Of a stretch of DNA of 64,000 bases, positions 33,001-39,000 are shown piece by piece. The stretch spans positions 32,001 to 96,000 of the forward strand of contig JBGAON010000003.1 of NCBI GenBank assembly GCA_044221725.1. The letters are read 5' to 3'. The DNA is from Elusimicrobiota bacterium. Lineage in GTDB: Bacteria > Elusimicrobiota > Elusimicrobia > F11. Made by a program: the position numbers. How positions within the stretch are numbered: position 1 is the first letter of the stretch; each line of letters opens with the position of its first letter.

Positions 33001-36000
33001 CCGGATTTCAATCCCGAGGGTCTTACCGCGCGCAGCCACTCGGAATACAAAGAGGGCACATCATTGACCGACATGCTCAAGGAAGATCTCGTGGCCGAAC
33101 GCATCGCGATCGATTCGTATCGCGAGATGATCAATTACATCGGCGCGAAAGATGCCACGACGCGGCGCATGCTTGAGGAAATTCTTGCCACCGAAGAAGA
33201 ACACGCGGATGACCTTGCGAAGCTTCTCCCGGCATCGGACAGCACGAACGGCAAGTCACCGGCCGAACTTTAACTTCTAAGGTTCGTAAAAAAATTAGAT
33301 TACTCTCATAGGAGGCGTGTATGGAAGACATTGCAAAAGGGGCAGAAAAGAAAATCAACGAAGGCGCCGGGCGGGTGCATGAAGGCATCGAAAAGGCGCG
33401 GCGAAACACCGTTGATATGATCGAAAAGAACACCTCGGCCGATACCGATGAAATCATTCGTTCCGTTCGCGAGAGAGGGCAAGAATATCTTAATCAGGCG
33501 AAGCAAAAAGGCGAAGACCTTTTGAATGCGGTGAGCACCGGCGGTCGCGCCAGCATGAAAAACTTGGCCAATTATATTGAGAGCCGTCCGGCCCAAGCGG
33601 TCGCCATTGCTGCGTGCGTGGGACTCGTGGCCGGGTTGCTTCTCGCGTCGTCCAGCAAAGAGGACTAGTGAACAATTCCCAAACACAAAAGCCTCCCAAC
33701 TTCGCCAAAGCGTTGCTCGGTCTCATCAAAGACCACGTTGAACTGGCGACGTTGGAATGTGTTTATGAGAAAGAAGCAGGGCAGCGCCGCGCTGTCGGAT
33801 TGGCAGCGGGTGTTGCTCTGCTCTTCTTTTCGTTTCTTTTCCTGCAGCTGTGCATCGTGGGGCTGTTGCACCGAATGGGACTCGGATTTGCTTCGATTGG
33901 GTTGATGGGCTGCTTGTTTTATGGGGGGATCGCTTATTACCTTCTAAAAAGGGCGTTGGCGCGTGACCCAGGCGTTGGGAAACCTTTTCAGTCGTCAATT
34001 CAACAGGTCAAACGGAGTTTTGAATGGATCGAGAGTCGTTTCTCTTAAAACGCGACTTGATTGTACGGCGGATGGACGATGATCGCCTGCTCCTGTCGCA
34101 ACATCAATTCGGATTGTTGCGTGCGCTAAAGCCGTTGGCTGTTCCTTACCTTCTAAAAAGCGTCGCCACTGTCGCCGGCATTCCGCTGGTGCAATATTTG
34201 TTGCGCAAGAAAGGTTTCTTCAACCACCGAAACAACTGACGATTGGATTTATTGGCTAACGAAAGTCGCGCGAGATGTCCTGCAGCAACGGTTCCGGAAC
34301 ATCGCCCATCAGCGTAAAGTAATTTTTACCTTTTTCCCAATGATAGACATTCCCCGAACCGGTCGCTTGAAGCGGGGATCCGTGTGCGGATAGTGCATTG
34401 CCGGTAGTGTTGGATGGAATCTTAACGGGCACCGGTGTCTGAAACAACGACAATGGTAGAACGCCGTCGGTGTACCGTACGTGTTTCACGGTTTTGCCGG
34501 TGATGTCCAAATAACTGATGCTTTCAAACGAAAAACCACCGGCCAATTTTTTCGAAAAGAGTTGCGCATCCTTTGCGCGCTGCGCATCGGCGGGGGAAAT
34601 CGTGTGCGTGGTATCAAGCGCTGCGTTGGTTTCAACTTCGGTAAGAAATAAATTGTTCGATGCCGACGTGTTCGGCACAAAGTCGGTGAAACGCGTTAAC
34701 GAGCCGCTTTGTGAATCATCGGTCGAATACTGCTTCGTTTCCAATACCACGTGCGTCTGCTGGTCCACGCGCATCTGATGGTGCGGTTTGCCAGGGATGA
34801 CCGGTGCCCAGTCCACAAGCCAGGTCGAGCGGCCCAACAACTTTTCTCCGGGTTTTACCGAGACCTTGTAGTTTTCAAGCAACAAACTTTTCTGATCTCT
34901 TGATTGCAGCGATTTTTGTGGGAACGTCGTGAAATAATTCTGAACAACCTGATCGTTTTTCAATAGTTGGGTCTCTTCTTTCACGCTGTTCGATAGCACC
35001 ACACGGTCGACAGATCCATCCGGACGCAAGAACTCCATGCGGTATTTGTCCGGAGGCTGGAAAAAAATGTTCACGTCTTCGGCCTTTGCTCCTTTGTCGG
35101 TCCACATACTGATCATAAGGTGACCTTTGAACGGCTTTTGCGGACCGCTGAGAATCATGTCGACCGTTTGAGCAGCGTCGGGCGCATCGCCGGCCGAAAC
35201 GAAAGCCAGCGTGGCAGAGACAAAACAGAAAGCAGCGGTGATCGTTTTGCGGATTTTAGACATGGCTCTTTACGTGCGCCGTCTGTTCCGACGCCGCGAG
35301 CACACGTTGGTGAAGAAGGGGGCTGGTTTGTCCCATGTTGTGAGCCGAGATAAGCGAGTCCATTGGAATAAACTCCGCGTGTTGGACCTGATAGAGGTGG
35401 AAAACGCCCGCGAAAACGGCGGCCGTGGCCAACGCGCCACCCAACGCAAACTGTTGGGATAACTTGGACCACGACGACCACTGGAAGAAATGAAAACGTT
35501 GGGCGTCTTGTTGCTCGAGAAGTCGGCGTTCCAGAGATTCAAGGAAGTACGTGGGCGCGGCAACCTGAGGAAGATCGGCCACCAAATCTTTCGATTTCTT
35601 GATCCTTTCAAGCTCTTCGCGCCATTCGCTGGAGGTTGCCAACTGTTGTTGGACCATTCGAAGTTCCGAGCCGTTCAGCTCACGGTCCAAAAAGGCCGAC
35701 AATAATTCCGATTCTTTTGTGCCTACCACCATACTCCTATCCCTCCAGATTAAGTTGCAACACCCAGTTGCATTTTTTCAAAAGCTTTTCGTAACAAAAC
35801 ACGTCCTTGGAAGATTCGCGACCGCACGGTTCCAATGGGACAATCCAATATTTCTGCGATCTGTTCATACGAATAACGCTCAACATCGCACAACACAACG
35901 ACCGAACGGTACAGCATGGGCAGAGATTCGAGCGCCTTCTGAATTAGCGTGTTGGCCTCTTTCTGGTCCAATTCTTCGGCGGGCGAAGGATCGTTCCCCG

Positions 36001-39000
36001 GAATAATGTTTTCCCAGGACACATCCTCGACAGGAGACGGCCCATCCATCGACACCGTATGCTTTCGGTCGTACTTCCGCATACTGTCAATGAAGATATT
36101 TTTGAGAATTCGGTTCAACCACGGCTGAAAAGGACGCGAAGGATCAAACTTATCAATGTGCCTTAAAACGTGCGTAAAAGCCTCCTGTACGAGGTCACGT
36201 GCGTCTTGATCATTGCCACTCAATCGATAAGCGAAACTGTAAGCCTTATCAGCGTGCCGTCGAACCAATTCCCCTATTTCGGGAGTCTTGGCGTCAAAGG
36301 CGCCCATGTTTACCTCTCATGGTGTCGATGTGAATACGGACAGGTCGCAAAAAAGTTCACCTCAGCTAATTTATTCTTCTGTGGGCCAATTTGGTGGGTT
36401 TTCCGTCGAGGAACAGCAAAACCAATTGAATTCTAACAAAAGGTTGCAACTAACCGTCAAGCGCCACGTAGGAATATTGAAAACCCCAAGGAGGTTGTAT
36501 GCCCGTAAAAGAACACCCATCGCCCCATCAAAAGCCGGTCGGATCGGAAGCCACTTATCGCGCCCAAGACTATTCTCGCCTGTTCGGAATGTCGGGATTC
36601 AGCGACAAATTGCTGCAAACACATTTTAAGTTGTACGAAGGCTACGTCGCTCAGGCCAACCAGCTGAATGAAAAACTGCGACAGTTAATCGAACAAGGTC
36701 AGGGAAAGACCCCGGAATTTGCCGAAATGAAGCGGCGCTGGGGCTGGGAATGGAACGGCATGCGCCTCCACGAATGTTATTTCGGAAATCTCGTGGCGAG
36801 AAAGGGCGGGGAAAGTTCGGACATTCCGGCGGCGCTAAAAAGCCGGATAGCCGAACAGTTCGGCTCATTGGACAATTGGAAGAACGATTTCTTGGCCAGC
36901 GGTGCGATGCGCGGGATCGGTTGGGTCATTTTGTACGAAGACACCAATCAAGGCTGGTTGTTCAATTCATGGATTGAAGAACACGCTACGAATCATTTGG
37001 CCGGCGGCTATCCTCTTTTGGTGATGGATGTGTTTGAGCACGCTTATATGCCCGATTACGGCACGGATCGCGCGAACTATATTGAAAGCTTTTTCAAAAA
37101 TATTGATTGGGACGTCGTTGCGTATCGAACAACAAATCGCCGAACTCAACAGTAATATAGAATACCGGCATGACATTGGACGGCCGGCCCCTTCGCGTAT
37201 TGATGATTGACGATGACGAGGAAGAATTTGTCCTCGCGAAAGCGCATTTGGAACAGCCCGATTCGGCGGTGGATCTTGAATGGGCAGAATCCTTAACCGC
37301 CGGCATGGAAACCCTTTCCCAAAAGAAATTTGATGTCGTTCTTCTGGACCTTTTTATGTCCGATAGCCGCGGTCTCGAAACGTTCACAAAGCTTCGCGCG
37401 AAATTTCCGAATGTCCCTATCGTGATTATGTCCGGTTTGGATGACGAAAAGCTCGCCCTCGAAGCGGTGCGCGGCGGCGCGCAGGATTATCTCGTCAAAG
37501 GCCACGGCGACCGGAGCCGGCTGTTCCGCGTATTGAATTATGCAATCAATCGGCACGAGCGGCAGAAAGATTCGGCCGATGAAGCGTTAATCGACAGCTT
37601 AACGAAGCTCTACAATCGCCGCGGGTTCTTGGCGATGGCCGAGCAACACATGAAAATTGCCAGACGCGATCAAAAAACATTTTTCGTTTTCTTTGCGGTG
37701 TTAAACGGGTTTGAGCAAATCGTCGAAGAATACGGTGAAGACGAAGGACAGCACGCGCTGCTCACGACGGCCGACATTCTCGGCGAAAGCTTCCGCACCG
37801 GCGATATTCTCGCCCGAATCGGTCAGAACGAGTTCGCTATTATTACAACCGTGGAAGGTCATTTTGACCCCAAACTTATTTCCGCGCGCATCGCTAAAAG
37901 TCAAAAATTTTACGAATCGCAGTTTAACTCGGTGCGCTTCTCGTTGAGCTTGTGCTCGAGCTACATTGATCTTTCTCAGGACGAGCCGATGAGCGAGTTC
38001 GAAGCGCATGTCGACCGTATTTTTCAGGAATACCACCGGCGCCAGCCGGCCGTTTCTTGATGTGGACTTTGTAAGAAAATTTCGAATTCTCAGCCAAGAC
38101 AAGTTTCGGCTAAAAGATTTTGATCCCTCCGATACGCATGGGTTTGAGAAAGAAGACGCATTGGCCCGCATCGAAAAGAATGTCGAACGCCTGTTCGAAC
38201 TCCAATATCTGCTGTACGCGGACAACCGTCAATCGCTGCTCATTATTTTGCAGGGGATGGATTCGTCCGGCAAAGACGGCGTTATCCGTCATGTGATGCG
38301 CGGACTCAACCCGCAAGGTTGCACCGTGGCATCGTTCAAGGCGCCGACGACCGAAGAATCGGAACACGATTTTTTGTGGCGTATTCACAAAATGACGCCG
38401 GCCAAAGGCGATATCACGATATTTAATCGATCGCATTACGAAGATGTCCTCGTTCCGCGCGTGCACCACCTTGTTCCCAAGAAGGCGTGGAAGGCACGGT
38501 ACGACCAAATTAATGACTTTGAGTGGATGTTGTCCGAAAACGGAACCCGGATTTTGAAGTTCTTTCTATATATAAGCAAGGACGAACAGAAGGAACGGCT
38601 CGAAGAGCGGCTGCAAAAGCCCGAGAAGAATTGGAAGTTTAATACGAACGATCTGAAAGAGCGCGAAAGATGGGGGGAATACATGGACGCCTACGAGGAT
38701 CTCATCTCGCGCTGCTCAAAAAAATGGGCGCCTTGGTATGTTATTCCCGCCGACAAAAAATGGTTTCGCAATCTCGCGATTTCAAAGATCGTGAACGACG
38801 AACTTCAGCGCATGAAACTCAAAATGCCGCCGCCGTTGCCGGGGGCGTCCCAGATTCGGATTAAGTAAGTCCTTCAAACCGCGGCTGTCGCTCGCGCCCA
38901 CAAAGAACCTGTCCAACAACCGCTTACCGGGGGAGTGGGAAGTGAACTTGTCGAATGACGCCGTCGGTGATCCAGCGGGAAAACCAGTTTCGCACCAGAG

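Follow-up and report, generated by a model that had tools for sequence, protein, structure and literature searches.

An autoregulated, RseB-gated ECF sigma factor of an uncultured Elusimicrobiota bacterium probably drives a general-stress regulon through promoters of the form (non-G)GAAC-N16/17-CGTA, a reading to which we assign a probability of about 0.8. One envelope-sensing sigma very likely turns on about forty stress-survival genes, like AlgU in Pseudomonas; the system works like AlgU, yet with a sigma of a different lineage. Computational support covers the motif, its position, the targets, conservation within the family, the RseB-like fold of a partner protein and the fit between sigma residues and promoter bases. 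The sigma operon lies on the minus strand of the window, the 64,000-nucleotide stretch of contig JBGAON010000003.1 that was analysed; feature coordinates, like those of the initial annotation of this DNA, are window positions, and gene starts throughout come from a simple custom gene caller.

The initial annotation had described an ECF sigma gene encoded with an anti-sigma and a MucB/RseB-like gene and preceded by its own promoter, and all of these elements were recovered (Table 1). It had typed the module as RpoE-RseA-RseB, which holds for the gene order and the RseB partner but not for the sigma, and only doubtfully for the anti-sigma. Against PDB sequences the sigma scores 122 bits with mycobacterial SigE, 68 bits with E. 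coli RpoE and 64-68 bits with AlgU/RpoE, SigE and SigW ranking above RpoE and AlgU. The RpoE/AlgU group model TIGR02939 reaches 86 bits (cut-off 236, rank 15), and the best NCBIfam match, SigE PRK09647, is itself below cut-off (156 bits vs 265). Judged on these TIGR02939, NCBIfam and PDB scores, the sigma is not RpoE/ECF02 and scores best with mycobacterial SigE. PDB alignments place R171-S172-F175-Q176 in region 4.2 (E. coli RpoE numbering) and identify a SigW-like sigma-2 loop; the passages of PMC7776599 consulted gave no rule for the -10 loop.

The anti-sigma has a ZAS-derived N-terminal domain, a single hydrophobic helix (residues ~95-113) and a C-terminal tail that is short and contains the invariant His131, and its family profile matches RsiW best (E 1e-8), MucA reaching only E 0.83. 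In the alignment the His/Cys zinc ligands are lost here and in the orthologs of G003, G004, G005, G009 and G011; most other family members retain them. The RseB-like protein begins with a signal-like hydrophobic stretch. Foldseek with its AlphaFold model (pLDDT 82) returned RseB (2v42, E 4.9e-14) and MucB on top, over the full length and both domains, and in the ESM Atlas it resembles MucB/RseB clusters (0.96), the look-alikes belonging to Pseudomonadota and Vulcanimicrobiota clusters. On this modelled structure, the third operon gene has the RseB fold. A search for related loci with this protein alone gave one short, seemingly unrelated match, and a profile search gave eight proteins in total, two of them labelled Elusimicrobiota. 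The genome also encodes one M50 protease and HtrA-family genes, and around the sigma gene lie a divergent sod, a cluster with DUF883 and the gene of the RseB-like protein.

Table 1. Genes of the sigma operon and predicted promoter sites, in window positions.
Feature	Position	Strand	Evidence or conservation
ECF sigma factor, 185 aa	35750..36307	-	Pfam Sigma70_r2/r4_2
Sigma gene's own promoter, GAACT-N15-CGTAT, 26-27 nt 5' of ATG	36334..36358	-	Kept in orthologs
Anti-sigma factor, 158 aa	35256..35732	-	Weak zf-HC2 match; family profile; alignment; hydropathy
MucB/RseB-like protein, 335 aa, overlapping anti-sigma stop	34256..35263	-	AlphaFold + Foldseek
CAACT variant site 5' of divergent Fe/Mn superoxide dismutase gene (36499-37155)	36447..36470	+	Weaker evidence
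Site 5' of DUF883 gene (33321-33668) and downstream holin-like/small genes to 34239	33265..33288	+	
N17 site 5' of OMP beta-barrel gene (30417-30992)	30354..30378	+	
Site 8 nt 5' of treZ (28441-30312), leaderless position	30321..30344	-	TIGR02402 above cut-off
Site 5' of DUF5670 small gene (28246-28395)	28436..28459	-	Kept in G005, G009
Site 5' of glgX (23226-25448)	23173..23196	+	TIGR02100; also G009, G011
Site 5' of triple-BON (OsmY-like) gene (14704-15492)	14640..14663	+	
Divergent site 5' of glycine-zipper OmpA lipoprotein gene (13909-14574)	14607..14630	-	
N17 site 9 nt 5' of DUF748 gene (12828-13904)	12794..12818	+	Kept in G005
Site 9 nt 5' of ligD (10294-12753), leaderless position	12763..12786	-	TIGR02776
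Site 8 nt 5' of ku (9272-10096), leaderless position	9240..9263	+	TIGR02772
Divergent variant sites AAACT, CAACT 5' of DUF6496 (4993-5169, -) and Rieske/FAD oxidoreductase (5263-6783, +)	5202..5254	.	
Site 5' of SRPBCC gene (1246-1845) and Zn-dependent dehydrogenase (1855-3033)	1185..1208	+	

The promoter GAAC-N16-CGTA is real. Of 2,236 genes, 31 have it upstream, compared with 3.2 ± 1.6 (maximum 9) expected from 300 permutations that exchanged the -35 and -10 halves among genes; the N17 form precedes 12 genes and every other spacer 0-6. For the strict GAAC(T/C)-N15-CGTA(A/T) motif, the reported 21 genes (0-5 at other spacers) became 19 in a recount with separate gene calls (≤100 nt from the start; 0-6 at spacers 9-23), and the reported whole-genome figure of 44 motifs against 12-25 (spacers 8-24) was reproduced exactly. 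As the motif had been picked post hoc, a second matrix was built solely from 11 self-promoters of other genomes; at threshold 12 it gave the same spacing peak, with 13 genes against 1-6 elsewhere. CGTA prevails at -10 (31, vs CGTC 11, CGTT 6 and CGTG 8), GAAC fills the -35 slot 29 times against 2.5 expected, and a G directly precedes it at one of the 29 sites. Distances to the start codon are bimodal, 10 of the 40 strict sites lying at 7-9 nt. A Shine-Dalgarno sequence precedes one of these ten genes and 25 of the 30 others (Fisher p 6e-5; genome-wide 825/2,237). Site position and this pattern suggest leaderless transcripts for one in four strict-site genes. A sigma-70 promoter and terminator scan stayed at chance level.

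Pfam and NCBIfam confirmed the targets originally named, Ku, GlgX, TreZ, three BON proteins, AI-2E and DUF883, as well as the off-spacer LigD and OMP genes, whose GAAC-CGTA spacings are N16 and N17. Other predicted targets are TreY, YihY, DUF1328, hemerythrins, an SDR, OMPs and a DegP-like gene, which bears the site, and the predicted regulon comprises about 40 strict-site genes, or up to about 64 counting AAC-core variants. Thirteen of the 40 strict targets fall among 40 genes at contig 29-69 kb, a cluster ending at the sigma gene. Within it, the stop of the DUF5670 gene overlaps the start of treY (25358-28246), and the OMP gene is followed on the same strand by a receiver-GGDEF-EAL gene and a bacterioferritin-like gene. 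No direct site was found at treT or at bacterioferritin q1802, and the one at Dps q1846 is a weak variant. The GC3 of the stress cluster (0.611) does not differ from that of the genome (0.597) and thus carries no compositional sign of recent transfer.

As the initial annotation had warned, whole-genome motif counts are noisy in relatives (18 vs control 30 in G005, which has the sigma ortholog; 27 vs 15 in G033, which lacks it), and were dropped as a presence/absence test in favour of an ortholog-level comparison. Four family members that carry the sigma ortholog have 30 site-adjacent genes with a homolog in this genome, and for 14 of these the homolog has a site as well (base rate 64/2,237 genes); in three genomes of other families the figure is 0 of 16. 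The DUF883 ortholog has a site in G005 and G009, the DUF6496 ortholog of G003 has a full GAAC site, and G005 carries seven sites on the contig of its sigma. Two genomes of the same genus (G002, 100% complete; G001, 87%) yielded no sigma ortholog. Ku occurs in 15 of 401 phylum genomes and is absent from all 11 family members searched. None of 13 other Ku loci (from 13 of the 14 other genomes, ≤1.47 kb upstream) has a site, and three of these genomes possess a Q/E176 sigma. Ku was accordingly rejected as a cross-genome marker of conserved wiring, the site at ku being seen in this genome only. In other families, Q/E176 sigmas have small secreted proteins and one amidase-like gene as their visible targets. 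There, the same sigma subtype seems to serve chiefly small secreted Lys/Ala-rich proteins, which makes the general-stress set look like a family-specific expansion.

The general-stress set had been described as wired to an envelope-type ECF and not to SigB, RpoS or EcfG. The targets do form the classic general-stress set, but excluding RpoS calls for caution, as the genome encodes an RpoS-like group-2 sigma (TIGR02394, 265 bits, below the cut-off of 378.7), which may share targets. It is conceivable, if improbable, that the ECF is an ordinary envelope-stress sigma with secondary sites and that another regulator, such as this RpoS-like sigma, is the main inducer. The targets seen in other families would fit such an arrangement, as would P. 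aeruginosa, where the same genes also drop strongly in an rpoN mutant (PMC4362757) and require quorum sensing (bioRxiv 523126). Against it, the sites at ku, ligD and treZ are in leaderless position and sites are conserved at orthologous stress genes in four genomes, which argues for primary promoters; moreover, a search of 41 genomes detected the RpoS-like sigma in 35, and the majority of these are without DUF1328 (7/41), this GlgX (10/41) or Ku (3/41).

In order to assign the promoter to a sigma, we considered the contacts of RpoE, in which R171 contacts C-31 and R176 contacts G-35 (PMC1540707). A self-site is present for 11 of 14 sigmas with R171 and Q/E176 (three R171/Q176 sigmas lack one: G004, G020 and the first tandem copy in G011). 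The preceding base is non-G in 11/11 of these self-sites and G in 12/12 of those of R176 sigmas, a split that does not represent 23 independent events because R176Q arose once in the tree. Among the seven ECFs of the genome, R171-S172-F175-Q176 occurs in this sigma alone, and on this residue-to-base fit it very likely reads the GAAC-CGTA promoter. The 53% identical paralog (C1:139744-140316), raised in the initial annotation as a possible reader, has its own short anti-sigma, an RseB-like gene (above the PF03888 cut-off) and HtrA upstream. There is a small chance that it or ECF q1026 reads some or all of the promoters, alone or jointly with this sigma: the paralog shares the sigma-2 loop type, has CGTAT upstream at the same spacing and adjoins an HtrA gene, its loss of R171 might loosen rather than alter -35 reading, and q1026 has a CAACT variant upstream. 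However, the paralog carries C171 in place of R171 and GAAGA upstream, and the self-sites of its clade are GAAGA, GAAGA, GAATA and AAACA, one paralog-type sigma (G007) retaining C-31. Unlike GAAC, neither GAAG, GAAT nor GAAA is in excess at the -35 slot (3, 4, 2 vs 2.5, 2.0, 4.1), and G007, where only the paralog type was found, shows no motif excess (3 strict sites vs control 36). The paralog can thus be largely set aside. That a motif discovered de novo, with noisy whole-genome controls, is an artefact of chance or composition has next to no probability, being refuted by the sharp spacer peak, the permutation maximum of 9 against 31, the agreeing independent matrix, the match between bimodal positions and Shine-Dalgarno pattern, and conservation at orthologs.

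For the autoregulated ECF, RpoE and AlgU suggest how the switch might operate. The single-pass anti-sigma would sequester the sigma while the RseB/MucB-fold protein binds and shields its outer tail; envelope, osmotic or desiccation stress would bring about release by an HtrA-type first cut and an RseP second cut, as made by DegS/AlgW and RseP/MucP in ECF02. The freed sigma would then read (non-G)GAAC-N16/17-CGTA promoters, its own included, with NHEJ (ku, ligD), trehalose/glycogen (treZ, treY, glgX), BON, DUF883, YihY, AI-2E and DUF1328 genes as predicted output, together with hemerythrins, an SDR, OMPs and DegP.

Four of 37 genomes have GGAAC-CGTA before comEC, and these are exactly the ones with the sister R176 sigma, which appears to control DNA-uptake genes in related families. 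LexA loss was rejected as an explanation of the sister regulon, LexA scoring above cut-off in G034, G027 and G019 and not being found in G040 alone. The evidence leaves evenly balanced a joint reading in which an unclassified ECF/ZAS-type anti-sigma/RseB module of Elusimicrobia was duplicated and its copies were put to opposite life-style programmes. On this view the Q176 branch (non-G GAAC-CGTA) would have taken charge, in this family, of the general-stress and NHEJ genes as a whole, and the R176 branch (GGAAC-CGTA) would run natural competence (comEC, comM-dprA, recA), with HNH, ORF6N, DUF1016 and transposase genes on the same promoter. If so, a single residue would insulate both branches, and DNA uptake would answer to an RseB system that senses the envelope. 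A literature search found no published match for a competence regulator of this type; the sister clade provides a candidate, and also a natural pair on which the sigma-4 specificity code could be tested. The new elements are a regulon of AlgU type that depends on a different sigma, in Elusimicrobiota, and the sister R176 clade with GGAAC-CGTA at comEC. For a phylum with hardly any description of its gene regulation, this names a probable master regulator of stress together with its promoter and about forty of its targets: literature searches on Elusimicrobia sigma factors and general stress found only unrelated papers, and neither the ECF reclassification text nor the part of its supplement consulted mentions Elusimicrobiota.

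Among known systems, SigW-RsiW of Bacillus subtilis is alike in anti-sigma profile and sigma-2 loop and likewise has a CGTA -10, but its -35 is TGAAAC rather than GAAC. Its target set is unlike this regulon, and it is not known to have an RseB partner. EcfG-NepR-PhyR (ECF15) and SigB systems have similar output gene sets. ECF15 is also alike in its GGAAC -35. In place of its soluble NepR/PhyR switch, however, we find a membrane-type anti-sigma and no PhyR among adjacent genes. A genome search found no RsbW-sized HATPase_c_2 protein for partner switching (11 weak matches, all in 404-745 aa frames) and no SigB-type sigma among 10 sigma-2 matches, the sole stand-alone non-RpoD, non-ECF sigma scoring RpoS/RpoD-like; this SigB test rests on HATPase_c_2 and sigma typing and leaves out STAS and SpoIIE.

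SigE-RseA of mycobacteria and corynebacteria (ECF14) is the best solved and NCBIfam relative of the sigma. According to the PMC7826278 supplement, ECF14 sigmas play a broad role in stress and have at +1 a ZAS anti-sigma, which in about half of cases contains one TM helix. Here the anti-sigma has lost the zinc ligands, and the O-methyltransferase at -1 and the downstream trypsin protease, TatB and Mrp are lacking; conversely, the ECF14 description (PMC7826278) does not list an RseB-like gene at +2, and its predicted promoter is unlike this one.

AlgU(AlgT)-MucA-MucB (ECF02) likewise combines a sigma, a single-pass anti-sigma and an RseB-fold partner in one autoregulated operon. Its promoter, GAACTT-N16/17-TC (PMC10651043), shares the geometry of a T 18-19 nt after GAAC, with TC at -10 instead of CGTA. 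The anti-sigma here may be of RseA/MucA type by its one TM helix and short tail, but its domain is ZAS/RsiW-like. Unlike the AlgU system, the one here has no upstream G (Q176), no MucC/RseC or mucD downstream and no alginate genes among its targets. AlgU controls DUF883 (PA3040), BON (PA5178) and OsmC (PMC3372973); treZ and trehalose in Pseudomonas, independently of RpoS (bioRxiv 523126); and hemerythrin, malQ, treZ and glgB in A. vinelandii (PMC10651043). In an algU deletion, glgX falls by 2.7 (-2.7), trehalose synthase goes down likewise (-3.6) and so does the Ku gene (-2.5 at an adjusted p of 0.11), but ligD, which has a site here, is not lowered (-0.5; PMC4362757 Table S3), and we found no literature on an AlgU regulon with trehalose and LigD together. 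The wiring is thus not unprecedented, and the novelty implied by the initial annotation was overstated, AlgU-MucA-MucB controlling trehalose, glycogen, DUF883, BON and OsmC in Pseudomonas/Azotobacter. The placing of general-stress genes under an RseB-gated envelope ECF, as with AlgU, seems to have evolved a second time here, with another sigma and anti-sigma lineage.

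Gene starts and q-numbers in the genome under study (2.82 Mb in 5 contigs, 94% complete) come from a purpose-written caller that yielded 2,237 genes at 92% coding. The ECF sigma factor is the first gene of an operon whose third protein, by its predicted structure (pLDDT 82), resembles RseB/MucB in fold across both domains (Foldseek E 4.9e-14; Atlas matches). The anti-sigma has a single hydrophobic helix followed by a tail of residues 114-158 with His131 invariant among 20 aligned homologs, and its zinc ligands are absent in orthologs from the same family; the family profile matches RsiW, ChrR and RsrA, MucA weakly and RseA not at all. 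One M50 and at least two HtrA proteases are encoded in the genome. We infer anti-sigma release by sequential proteolysis and, likewise, the inducing signal of the sigma.

The motif excess at spacer 15 claimed in the initial annotation was confirmed, the strict pattern occurring 44 times genome-wide compared to 12-25 times at other spacers. Among 2,236 upstream regions, GAAC-N16-CGTA precedes 31 genes, N17 12 and other spacers 0-6, whereas exchanging the motif halves between genes gave 3.2 ± 1.6 (maximum 9 in 300 runs). Alternative -10 elements at N16 were found 11 (CGTC), 6 (CGTT) and 8 (CGTG) times. The antisense count was also above background (15), which we attribute to divergent site pairs, e.g., at window positions 12763/12794 and 14607/14640. 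A matrix trained exclusively on 11 self-promoters from other genomes peaked at the identical spacing in this genome. Strict sites lie 5-70 nt upstream of 40 genes, ten of which have the site 7-9 nt ahead of the start; a Shine-Dalgarno sequence accompanies 1 of these ten, 25 of the remaining 30 and 825 of the 2,237 genes genome-wide, as leaderless and leadered transcripts off one promoter would look like. This positional evidence goes beyond that given in the initial annotation. The promoter motif is real.

In E. coli RpoE, C-31 is read by R171, A-33 by F or H175, G-34 by S172 and G-35 by R176 (sections consulted of PMC1540707). By alignment, the sigma carries R171, S172, F175 and Q176, and its predicted -35 element is therefore GAAC with no preference for a preceding G. 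A G stands directly ahead of GAAC in 1 of 29 sites (p ~0.003). Across relatives, 11 of 14 sigmas with R171 and Q/E176 have a self-site upstream of their own gene, all 11 non-G, and the preceding G is present at each of the 12 R176 sigmas whose self-site is GAAC-CGTA. As the Q176 sigmas form one clade (SH-aLRT 97), this amounts to one evolutionary event consistent with a prior structural rule, not to 23 tests. The other five ECFs of the genome differ across residues 171-176. SigW-like sigma-2 loops select A at -10, and the loop of the sigma is similar to that of SigW. The earlier assignment of the promoter to this sigma is well supported by the -35 residue fit, the near absence of G and the relatives' self-sites. 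A minor part of the reading, that of CAAC-type variant sites, could fall to the ECF q1026; this ECF, preceded by a CAACT variant site and located in a second site-rich cluster, may therefore be a secondary sigma of a cascade. The paralogous ECF (53% identical) as alternative reader is disfavoured by its C171 and upstream GAAGA, its clade's self-sites being GAAGA, GAATA and AAACA, -35 types without genome-wide excess here.

Features discussed, in window coordinates unless a contig or extracted locus (L) is named
Feature	Position	Strand	Remark
ECF sigma gene	35750-36307	-	
Anti-sigma gene, 158 aa	35256-35732	-	
RseB/MucB-like gene, 335 aa	34256-35263	-	
Own promoter GAACT-N15-CGTAT	26-27 nt ahead of sigma start	-	motif match
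RpoS-like group-2 sigma, 276 aa	G000:C5:375227-376057 (L007:1372-2202)		87-97% identity within family
ECF q1026	G000:C3:659947-660621 (L047:4948-5622)		
Paralog operon	G000:C1:138119-141307 (L041:4120-7308)	-	own site GAAGA-N15-CGTAT
SigK-like ECF	43784-44320 (locus 38924-44320)	-	own site GAATC-N17-CGTA
Giant protein, 1,897 aa	G000:C5:197720-203413		
Tandem sigma copies	L251 (G011:C51:5148-6296)		
Further ECF clade	L027, L028, L030 (G015, G025, G032)		self-sites GGAACG-N15-GCGTCT
Small secreted Lys/Ala-rich proteins	L416, L417, L422, L430, L176, L179, L226		after non-G GAAC sites; families f9 and f13
comEC	L402 (G034), L404 (G019), L405 (G027), L406 (G040)		
recA	L214		
comM	L205, L170		
R176-clade sigmas	L243, L025, L029, L244		

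With the sigma as reader, the putative regulon was annotated by a Pfam scan of 51 site-bearing genes and 22 neighbours, then 4 further site-bearing genes, within the fetched regions. Strict sites precede genes for Ku, LigD, GlgX, TreZ and a DUF5670 protein whose gene runs into TreY, for a triple-BON protein, OmpA lipoprotein, OMP barrel, DUF883 and AI-2E proteins, two hemerythrins, SDR, SRPBCC, DUF2383, DUF748 and cupin proteins, a P-type ATPase, M17 peptidase, DoxX and a DegP-like protease, and for several small proteins without assigned family. Variant sites with an AAC core precede YihY, DUF1328, DUF6496, DUF4142, transaldolase, Hsp20, UDG and SOD genes. Thirteen of the 40 strict targets sit within 40 genes (contig 29-69 kb), a cluster that ends at the sigma.

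Close orthologs of the sigma (62-71% identity) were found in G003, G005, G009 and G011 and none in G001, G002, G008 or G010; the G004 ortholog (61%) lacks a self-site. From the strict-type sites sampled in the first four (30 of 39 in G003, 30 of 36 in G009, all 25 in G005 with one locus unparsed, all 23 in G011), 30 site-adjacent non-sigma genes have a homolog in the genome under study, and 14 of these homologs are also site-bearing, against a base rate of 64/2,237; the same comparison in G040, G027 and G034 gave 0/16. DUF1328 occurs in 7 of 41 genomes, with a site here (variant), in G003 and in G009 and none in the four other-family genomes, and GlgX in 10 of 41, with a direct site here, in G009 and in G011, one ~1 kb upstream in G003 and none in the other six. 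Counting against conservation, the Ku genes of the 13 other genomes examined have no upstream site, and whole-genome motif counts across relatives are noisy. In G174, G385, G383, G040 and G034, the few visible sites of Q/E176 sigmas lie ahead of the sigma itself and of small secreted Lys/Ala-rich proteins, possibly the ancestral targets and perhaps akin to Asr-type periplasmic chaperones; this suggests that a small envelope regulon grew into general stress within the family studied here.

A distinct R176 clade (SH-aLRT 99), accompanied by a ZAS anti-sigma and an RseB-like gene, is present in G019, G027, G034 and G040 among 37 genomes. In exactly these four, GGAAC-N16/17-CGTA lies 7-9 nt ahead of an in-frame comEC start; the remaining 33 tested, 3 of which had <400 nt upstream, show no such site. 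All four have a same-strand site upstream of dprA, 0.5 kb away in G040 and 2.9-3.4 kb in the others, and comM was identified after this site in G027. Sites sampled in G040 (30 of 40), G027 and G034 (30 of 33 each) take the form GGAACT...TCGTAT, with the preceding G in 22, 21 and 21 of 30, and stand ahead of RecA, ComEC, ComM, SpoVG, HNH, ORF6N, DUF1016, Y1 transposase, integrase and XRE genes. This sister clade is a candidate, from sequence, for running a competence regulon with selfish passengers (HNH, ORF6N, DUF1016, transposase, XRE). A literature search, thin in its coverage of subscription journals, found no ECF-run competence regulon. The most interesting lead, though a computational one only, is the rewiring between general stress and competence among modules of a single family.

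Several other sigma loci were observed. The paralog operon encodes an HtrA without obvious signal peptide, the ECF, a truncated 131-aa anti-sigma, an RseB-like protein and a small secreted protein. The own site of a SigK-like ECF with ZAS anti-sigma agrees with its T172/R175; the genes downstream we take to be thioredoxin-like, Cys-rich and DUF692-like. In G011 the sigma occurs in two tandem copies, with self-site and following anti-sigma at the second only. A further ECF clade with C at -10 and a differing sigma-2 loop offers a natural control for -10 specificity, and a giant protein combines a sigma-70 region 2/4 module with a kinase-like domain.

Placing general-stress genes under an ECF of the RpoE-RseA-RseB type is not new, contrary to what the initial annotation implied, as the AlgU regulon has an overlapping gene set. 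The AlgU promoter, GAACTT-N16/17-TC, equals the motif found here in geometry. We take PA14_36605, labelled a glycosyl hydrolase, to be treY. In the supplement of PMC4362757, as far as consulted, algU deletion lowers PA14_36605 (down 3.9), trehalose synthase (3.6), glgX (2.7) and the Ku gene (2.5, adjusted p 0.11) and leaves ligD unaffected; for these rows, rpoS deletion lacks such an effect, rpoN deletion has a stronger one, and AlgU ChIP is entered as 'no'. Parts of further sources report AlgU-dependent, RpoS-independent treZ induction, with ChIP data cited for binding to the treYZ operon (bioRxiv 523126), OsmC together with one DUF883 and one LysM-BON protein in the AlgU regulon (PMC3372973), and hemerythrin, malQ, treZ and glgB among A. 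vinelandii AlgU targets (PMC10651043). The genome under study also has an RpoS-like group-2 sigma, with matches in 35 of 41 genomes. As to the 'RpoE-RseA-RseB-type' label, the RseB fold stands, but the anti-sigma profile is not that of RseA and the sigma is nearest mycobacterial SigE (122 bits versus 68 and 64 for RpoE/AlgU), scoring under every NCBIfam equivalog cut-off shown. The ECF14 gene context is absent around it, and by the parts consulted of PMC7826278, whose further tables may classify such sigmas, it would belong to neither ECF02 nor ECF14. Sharing regulon genes and geometry but failing membership, it therefore appears to work in an AlgU-like manner outside both groups: an AlgU-like solution of moderate novelty that rests on an unclassified sigma, from a phylum that has been little studied.
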